This document shows positions 13,732-14,057 of a DNA stretch of 64,000 nucleotides, piece by piece. Below the pieces are notes generated by a model. The model was given only the letters and a program-made list of their open reading frames with translations. It ran no database searches and had not been told where the DNA came from. This DNA comes from Escherichia coli. GTDB taxonomy: Bacteria > Pseudomonadota > Gammaproteobacteria > Enterobacterales > Enterobacteriaceae. The translations under genes were made by a program, and so were the position numbers. The number at the start of each line of letters is the position of its first letter. Position 1 is the first letter of the stretch. The DNA lies in the NCBI RefSeq assembly GCF_003019035.1, contig NZ_CP027447.1. One strand, written 5' to 3'.

Positions 13732-14057
13732 GCTAAGGTTGAAGGGGCTGGAACGCCCCTTCAACCTTAGCAGTAGCGTGGGATGATTTCACAATTAGAA
13801 AGACCTGCATGATGAGCTAGAGAAGAGGCTAGTGACGCAAGGCGTCGTGCACGACGCGGATCACCGAGATGGGCATCGCCAACCAGACTGCTAATTAGCC
13901 CATGAATAACAATCAGAAAGGACCATAACAAACCCGATAAAATGAAATATTAGAGACGATCAACGGGTGAAAAAAAGTTCAAAAATTCGCTGTGGAGCAG
14001 GAAGGGAATTACCGAATGGAAAGCGTAGCCACACGCAACAACTGAAAGCAGTTTGGC

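Follow-up and report, generated by a model that had tools for sequence, protein, structure and literature searches.

In the window, the 64,000-nucleotide stretch of Escherichia coli DNA analyzed here, the interval 13771–14057 lies in the gene order lptD (minus strand), djlA (plus strand, ending at 12678), espY1 (plus strand), the interval, rluA (minus strand), and rapA (minus strand). The espY1 gene (12973–13731, plus strand) was recognized as an ORF with a Pfam Pentapeptide match and encodes a 252-aa pentapeptide-repeat T3SS effector; PGAP names the same gene "T3SS effector EspY1" in strain SCU-301, whose sequence is 100% identical. In K-12 DH1, a frameshift splits the espY1 frame into yabP and yabQ. 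K-12 yabQ (b0057; L002 2342–2500) corresponds to window positions ~13573–13731, where it makes up the final 52 codons of the espY1 frame; it ends at the espY1 stop codon at 13731, 40 bp before the start of the interval. The preliminary description had stated that the neighborhood of the interval is annotated as yabQ in K-12, a label that was misplaced, since yabQ is located upstream of the interval. On the other side, rluA (14137–14796, minus strand; supported by its ORF and by PGAP annotation) is convergent with espY1, and its transcripts would enter the DNA between the two genes from the rluA-proximal end, which is the outside end of the insertion sequence (IS) remnant described below. A spacer of 28 bp (14109–14136), delimited by comparison with the empty-site alleles (L008–L010), separates the IS end from the rluA stop codon.

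The plus strand of 13771–14057 does not contain a long ATG-started ORF, as had been noted from the letters alone, and the two short frames given as examples, MNNNQKGP and MESVATRNN (each closed by a stop codon), start at 13903 and 14017, respectively. The GC content is moderate, at 46.3% compared with 52.5% for the whole window. The description of the stretch as dense in stop codons did not hold against composition-matched shuffles: there are 19 plus-strand stops versus 15.9 ± 2.8 in the shuffles, 17.6% of which reach 19, and the longest stop-free run (37 codons versus a shuffle mean of 52) is equally short in 14% of them. When GTG and TTG starts were allowed, the plus strand contained ORFs of 20 aa (13832–13894) and 51 aa (13967–14122), and the minus strand contained an ORF of 54 aa (13767–13931), which corresponds to the broken N-terminus of a transposase. 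None of the checked ORFs is kept as an ORF across alleles. Of the six other alleles compared, five have lost the frame of the 51-aa ORF to a 1-nt indel after 13971, and the TTG start of the 54-aa ORF (site 13931) is CTG in five of seven alleles.

We conclude with high confidence that 13771–14057 is the interior of a dead, 359-bp ISEc13-like IS remnant (13750–14108) of the IS4 family, Tn5/IS50 type. In the blastn alignment, the final ~357 bp of ISEc13 (1,570 bp in all) are colinear with 13750–14108, and the colinearity ends exactly at the ISEc13 terminal repeat, a stop that is shared with two ISEc13 copies. These two copies, which lie in unrelated flanks on pEF03 (NZ_CP040808.1) and pMAR2 (NC_011603.1), set the bounds of the element, whose ends are CTGTCTCTTGATCAGATCT... 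and ...ACTTGTGTATAAGAGACAG. The ISEc13 ends CTGTCTCTTATACACAAGT and CTGTCTCTTGATCAGATCT are, we presume, almost the same as the outside and inside ends of Tn5. The remnant is 87–88% identical overall to the pEF03 copy (L006 2501–2857) and 81% identical to the pMAR2 copy, and its identity to ISEc13 is similar in the coding part (87%) and the leader (88%). A sensitive plasmid search also matched 13750–14098 to DNA annotated as "IS4-like element ISEc13 family transposase" (88%). RefSeq already lists a pseudogene at this spot in SCU-301, K-12 DH1, O157:H7, and others, named "transposase DNA-binding-containing protein" or "IS4/Tn5 family transposase DNA-binding protein", which is frameshifted and lacks its C-terminus. 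This pseudogene spans only 13748–13926 and leaves the leader, hairpin, and repeat (13927–14108) unannotated; our alignment extends the annotation by 182 bp to the true IS end at 14108. A search of the literature on this locus (ISEc13, yabQ/rluA, EspY1/yabP, and the rapA–rluA terminator) found nothing.

The ISEc13 alignment also decides the fate of the suggestion that the interval is an eroded gene remnant. It is a remnant, but neither the identity nor the strand was as proposed: it is the end of an ISEc13-like element on the minus strand, and not yabQ or a plus-strand gene. An eroded yabQ, or another host gene on the plus strand, would be in line with the K-12 annotation, which places yabQ near the interval. 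However, yabQ lies wholly upstream as the 3′ part of the espY1 frame, the plus strand of 13771–14057 has no protein similarity, and the transposase fragments sit on the minus strand. The yabQ coordinates and the ISEc13 alignment together refute this reading, to which we assign practically no probability.

The intact ISEc13 transposase (457 aa) carries Tnp_DNA_bind, DDE_Tnp_1, and Dimer_Tnp_Tn5 domains and is matched by NF033590 ("IS4 family transposase"); its alignment with Tn5 transposase structures covers the full length of the protein (E = 6e-83, PDB 1MUH). The DNA is not IS50 itself, and the ISEc13 leader is longer (~180 nt from the end to the ATG) and carries an end hairpin and a T-run. 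The remnant shares with ISEc13 the terminal repeat, the end hairpin, the leader, and transposase codons 1–58, but only 23% of the 1,570 bp is left. Residues 1–58 of 457 persist without an intact DDE transposase frame, and the DDE and dimerization domains as well as the inside end are gone. A second ISEc13 segment or second terminal repeat was not present in the 64-kb window. Since only the outside end is present, the feature is a remnant and not an element; it is unable to transpose and encodes nothing. It resembles the annotated IS pseudogenes of K-12 and other RefSeq genomes, which are likewise short, frameshifted, and truncated transposase fragments fixed at one chromosomal site.

The transposase pseudogene (13750–13926, minus strand) covers the first ~58 codons, which encode the N-terminal DNA-binding domain (tblastn against the ISEc13 transposase, E = 5e-15). 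Two frameshifts and one in-frame stop divide it among three frames: residues 1–11 are followed by the stop, residues ~16–42 are in a second frame, and residues 43–58 are in a third. The frame-corrected peptide scored 27.4 bits against the NCBIfam N-terminal domain model NF049926, narrowly above its cut-off of 27, a score that applies to a literal query sequence spliced by hand from the tblastn segments and not to a direct translation. The match to the Tn5-type N-terminal DNA-binding domain and the presence of the TTG-started 54-aa ORF in the window could be taken to mean that the truncated N-terminus, or the ORF itself, gives rise to a small protein that binds DNA or acts as an inhibitor. We consider this highly improbable, as the frame of the 54-aa ORF holds only domain residues ~16–42, its start codon is replaced in most alleles as described above, the scan did not place a promoter-like site for the truncated transposase, and PGAP calls the N-terminus a pseudogene.

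The pseudogene is preceded on the minus strand by the IS leader (13927–14065), ~140 nt of non-coding DNA from the outside end to the transposase ATG that was delimited by alignment to the ISEc13 copies and is 87.6% identical to the pEF03 copy and 73% identical to the pMAR2 copy. The last nine positions assigned to the leader form a T9 run (14057–14065, minus strand; A9 on the plus strand). It adjoins the IS-end hairpin AAATCCCCG-AGTC-CGGGGATTT (14066–14087, minus strand), which was identified by a terminator scan, folds, and alignment. The remnant is closed by a degenerate terminal inverted repeat, the outside end (14090–14108), in which ATTTATGTACAAGAGGCAG matches ACTTGTGTATAAGAGACAG of ISEc13 at 15 of 19 positions and differs at four. 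Of the flanks in which a target-site duplication would lie, only the right one survives, as CCCTTAGGA (14109–14117); the truncating deletion took away the inside end together with the DNA that had flanked it.

A second, degenerate chromosomal ISEc13 copy (L003 3040–3187) adjoins an MgtC/SapB gene in strain Z1323CEC0013. The first ~150 bp of this copy carries the remnant-specific indels and K-12-type SNPs and is 94.7% identical to the window, while the MgtC/SapB-adjacent locus of strain W2-5 (L004) is of the ISEc13 type (85.9%). The Z1323CEC0013 patch looks like ectopic gene conversion, in a strain that apparently does not have the island.

The 5′ boundary of the interval falls at a perfect palindrome with a 17-bp stem and a 6-nt loop (13732–13771), which directly follows the espY1 stop codon. 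Its fold energy is −34.5/−35.1 kcal/mol (z = −7.0/−8.7), and it is invariant in all seven alleles. The core of the palindrome, GAAGGGGC-TGGAAC-GCCCCTTC, is the 3′ hairpin of the espY family. The same core recurs behind the espY2 paralogue, both in the window (~32296–32320) and in strain 6EVA, where it is followed by a T-run and resembles an ordinary terminator. Colinearity with the IS, which begins at 13750, takes in the outer right arm, AACCTTAGC, and the espY/IS junction is in or beside the palindrome loop. In espY1, the sequence beyond GCCCCTTC reads AACCTTAGCAGT... and is colinear with ISEc13 AACCTGAGCAGT (residues Q/K-V-E); of the 13 positions of the overlap GGAACGCCCCTTC, 11 agree with the IS and 12 with espY2. 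On the left arm, the outermost 9 nt, GCTAAGGTT, are unlike those of the paralogues and are the exact complement of the IS-derived arm. These comparisons suggest a hybrid origin, in which the palindrome fuses an espY-family terminator to IS sequence. A pure inverted duplication of the IS was considered as its source and was rejected, as the same hairpin core is found behind the espY2 paralogues. The palindrome probably marks the 3′ end of espY1; on the plus strand, it is followed by AGTAGCG and has no U-tract.

The espY2-like paralogue in the window is located between thiB and sgrR (31640–32320). Its ORF stops early, at 189 aa, with similarity continuing downstream, and its own terminator hairpin is AGAGGGGC-TGGAAT-GCCCCTTCT.

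At the opposite end of the remnant, the minus strand reads AAATCCCCGAGTCCGGGGATTT and then TTTTTTTTTCTGC at 50–80 nt past the rluA stop codon (terminator scan and fold), that is, a G+C-rich stem-loop followed by a U-tract shortly after the gene. The IS-end hairpin with T9 is therefore likely to act as the intrinsic terminator of rapA–rluA, as predicted from this arrangement. Between rluA and espY1 there are otherwise only two terminator-like sites, one being the junction palindrome and the other a weak site with a short stem at 14023–14036. Judging from the alignment, the hairpin descends from the one located just inside the outside end of ISEc13, which in the intact element folds at −19.9 kcal/mol (z = −4.4), has a loop that differs between the two copies, and is followed by TTTGTTATTT. 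Blocking transcription that comes from outside is a known strategy of IS elements. By analogy, the end hairpin and T-run of ISEc13 would face and block such incoming transcription in the intact IS. The T-run itself is T3-G-T2-A-T3 in ISEc13, T6-G-T3 in K-12, O157, and most other strains, and T9 in the window and R32 alleles, where it arose via loss of one base. The weaker run of the other alleles counts against the terminator role, as does the curated K-12 Term-seq table, which has no rluA entry and no 3′ end at 59.59–59.65 kb, the span of the IS-end hairpin (PMC7815308), possibly reflecting low expression of rluA. Terminating rapA–rluA transcripts, a passive function, is probably the only present-day role of the remnant.

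In strain 144, an IS200 copy (IS200/IS605 family) is inserted in the A/T-run beside the IS-end hairpin (L018 ~633–1338; after window position ~14062), inside the predicted rluA terminator tail.

By megablast of 13732–14136, the remnant is present in 2,081–2,084 of 5,426 complete E. coli genomes, always together with espY1 or yabPQ, and the matches are at least 95% identical in all but four records. Both djlA and rluA were matched in 5,425/5,425 genomes, 2,073 of which have the 1,458-bp island (12679–14136) between them. Island-free genomes instead carry a REP spacer of 116–149 bp, whose difference from the island allele extends over the whole distance between the two stop codons and which is unrelated to the 28-bp spacer at 14109–14136. 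The REP/BIME spacer of these genomes occupies the same place between convergent stops and likewise supplies hairpins downstream of rluA, but its sequence is not similar to that of the remnant, and it is far shorter than the 1,458-bp island. The island of espY1 and remnant can serve as a presence/absence genotyping marker, being found in ~38% of complete E. coli genomes. A search with EspY1 among 100,044 species-representative genomes found the island on a single E. coli-like contig of 1,646 bp.

That contig (L011; JAIJJM010000692.1), which carries espY1 and the IS remnant, was binned into a "Collinsella sp." MAG and is probably a binning contaminant. In some island-free genomes (H138, H148, and H158), IS621 of the IS110 family is inserted in the djlA–rluA REP spacer.

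The seven island alleles compared differ pairwise by 0.3–2.5% in the IS remnant (13750–14108) and by 0.3–2.7% in the djlA–espY1 spacer (12679–12972), compared with 3–14% at the 4-fold sites of djlA, rluA, and rapA (the identical K-12/EC26 pair left out; remnant versus 4-fold sites, Fisher p down to 1e-13). Taken alone, the low divergence of the remnant could indicate constraint. However, it is as low as that of the other non-coding part of the island and not lower, all four allele combinations occur at sites 13831 and 13931 (a positive four-gamete test), and the distances between alleles in the remnant are not mirrored in the flanks. A better explanation of the uniformity than constraint is therefore that recombination has recently spread the island as a whole among lineages, and low divergence as a sign of constraint on 13771–14057 was set aside. 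The same comparison bears on whether the remnant is co-opted rather than inert. Under co-option, the hairpin would be kept as the rapA–rluA terminator, the T-run would have lengthened from T3 (ISEc13) through T6 (K-12) to T9 (window), which would fit, and the low divergence could reflect selection on a regulatory transcript or on the protection of espY1 and rluA from each other's transcription. We regard co-option as unlikely.

Sigma-70-like promoters were not detected on either strand within 13700–14150, and the only plus-strand promoter-like site is located at 12836, upstream of espY1. In K-12, DirectRNA-seq recorded 280 plus-strand reads in the 800 nt upstream of position 60116 and 19 downstream; this 15-fold drop on the plus strand is relieved by bicyclomycin (BCM) and was classed as antisense to rluA (PMC7815308, supplementary file 2). 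The signal fits read-through from the yabPQ/espY1 promoter across the remnant. The interval may be transcribed passively, as an extended 3′ UTR or a tail of read-through from espY1 (yabPQ in K-12), a reading that we hold to be possible but not the more probable one. Read-through from espY1 would pass the palindrome at 13732–13771, which has no U-tract, cross the remnant, and end either at the IS hairpin, whose plus-strand face is weak, or through Rho in antisense rluA. The sole plus-strand promoter-like site and the BCM-relieved end of the K-12 reads inside antisense rluA are in line with such a transcript, but the 800-nt coverage bin holds no information on where transcripts start, and we found no structure or conservation specific to a UTR function. 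Moreover, read-through is compatible with the IS-remnant identity and not an alternative to it. The earlier proposal of a 3′ UTR of the effector gene thus survives as passive read-through, and nothing points to a dedicated UTR function.

The other transcript proposed for this interval, an unannotated small RNA, fared worse. Two strong hairpins bracket the interval, allele divergence is very low, and there is some plus-strand transcription in K-12, all of which might be expected of a small RNA on either strand between the hairpins. However, a permissive-threshold Rfam scan of 12600–14900 returned only generic terminator-stem look-alikes with E values of at least 2, none at even half its gathering score. 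RNA folding of 13772–14065 was no better than that of shuffles on both strands (z = −0.7 and −0.5). Neither a promoter of its own nor a curated Term-seq 3′ end in the K-12 span around the IS-end hairpin was present, and conservation beyond that of the rest of the island was not seen. The interval is also fully explained as an IS leader and the 5′ end of a transposase gene, it is absent from 62% of E. coli genomes, and the EspY1 search found the island on only the one E. coli-like contig mentioned above. We therefore consider a small RNA very unlikely.

We propose a history for the ISEc13-like remnant based on these sequences. An ISEc13-like element would once have been inserted beyond the 3′ end of espY1, its outside end lying 28 bp short of the rluA stop codon and its transposase gene directed towards espY1. 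A deletion would then have removed ~1.2 kb of the element, and the break would have joined transposase codon ~58 to the espY1 terminator hairpin at the 13-nt patch of similarity. A replication template switch in the resulting imperfect palindrome may have copied the new right arm onto the left arm, yielding the perfect hairpin. The hairpin with which the IS would have resisted read-in could subsequently have served rapA–rluA as a terminator. This is the simplest reading, and both the order of events and the template switch are inferred from three sequences, only two of which, those of espY2 paralogues, bear on the switch. The EspY1 protein search of the 100,044 species-representative genomes did not yield an outgroup with an intact IS, and the order of events could therefore not be polarized.

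The interval is an ordinary feature of an already known kind, a decayed IS end flagged as a transposase pseudogene in RefSeq, and its overall importance is small. The present analysis corrects its label, in that a broken espY1 accounts for both yabP and yabQ, and what follows them is IS debris. It further traces the remnant to its full length, identifies the IS hairpin as a structure that rluA has likely taken over as its terminator, and points to a putative hybrid origin of the espY1 palindrome. The locus also provides an example of a deleted IS leaving behind ready-made hairpins that convergent neighboring genes may use as 3′ ends.

Two further regions of the neighborhood showed unusual polymorphism. 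The espY1 alleles (12973–13731; window versus L002 and L012) diverge far more than their surroundings, mainly at replacement sites, with dN of 0.056–0.076 and dS of 0.043–0.064 (dN/dS >1), and they differ in length within the pentapeptide repeats; this may reflect diversifying selection, decay, or conversion from paralogues. The lptD–djlA intergenic region (11609–11862), 254 bp in length, is 100% identical in the window, K-12, and O157, while the genes that flank it differ at 7–11% of synonymous sites when the window strain is compared with K-12 or O157 and at 2–3% when K-12 is compared with O157.
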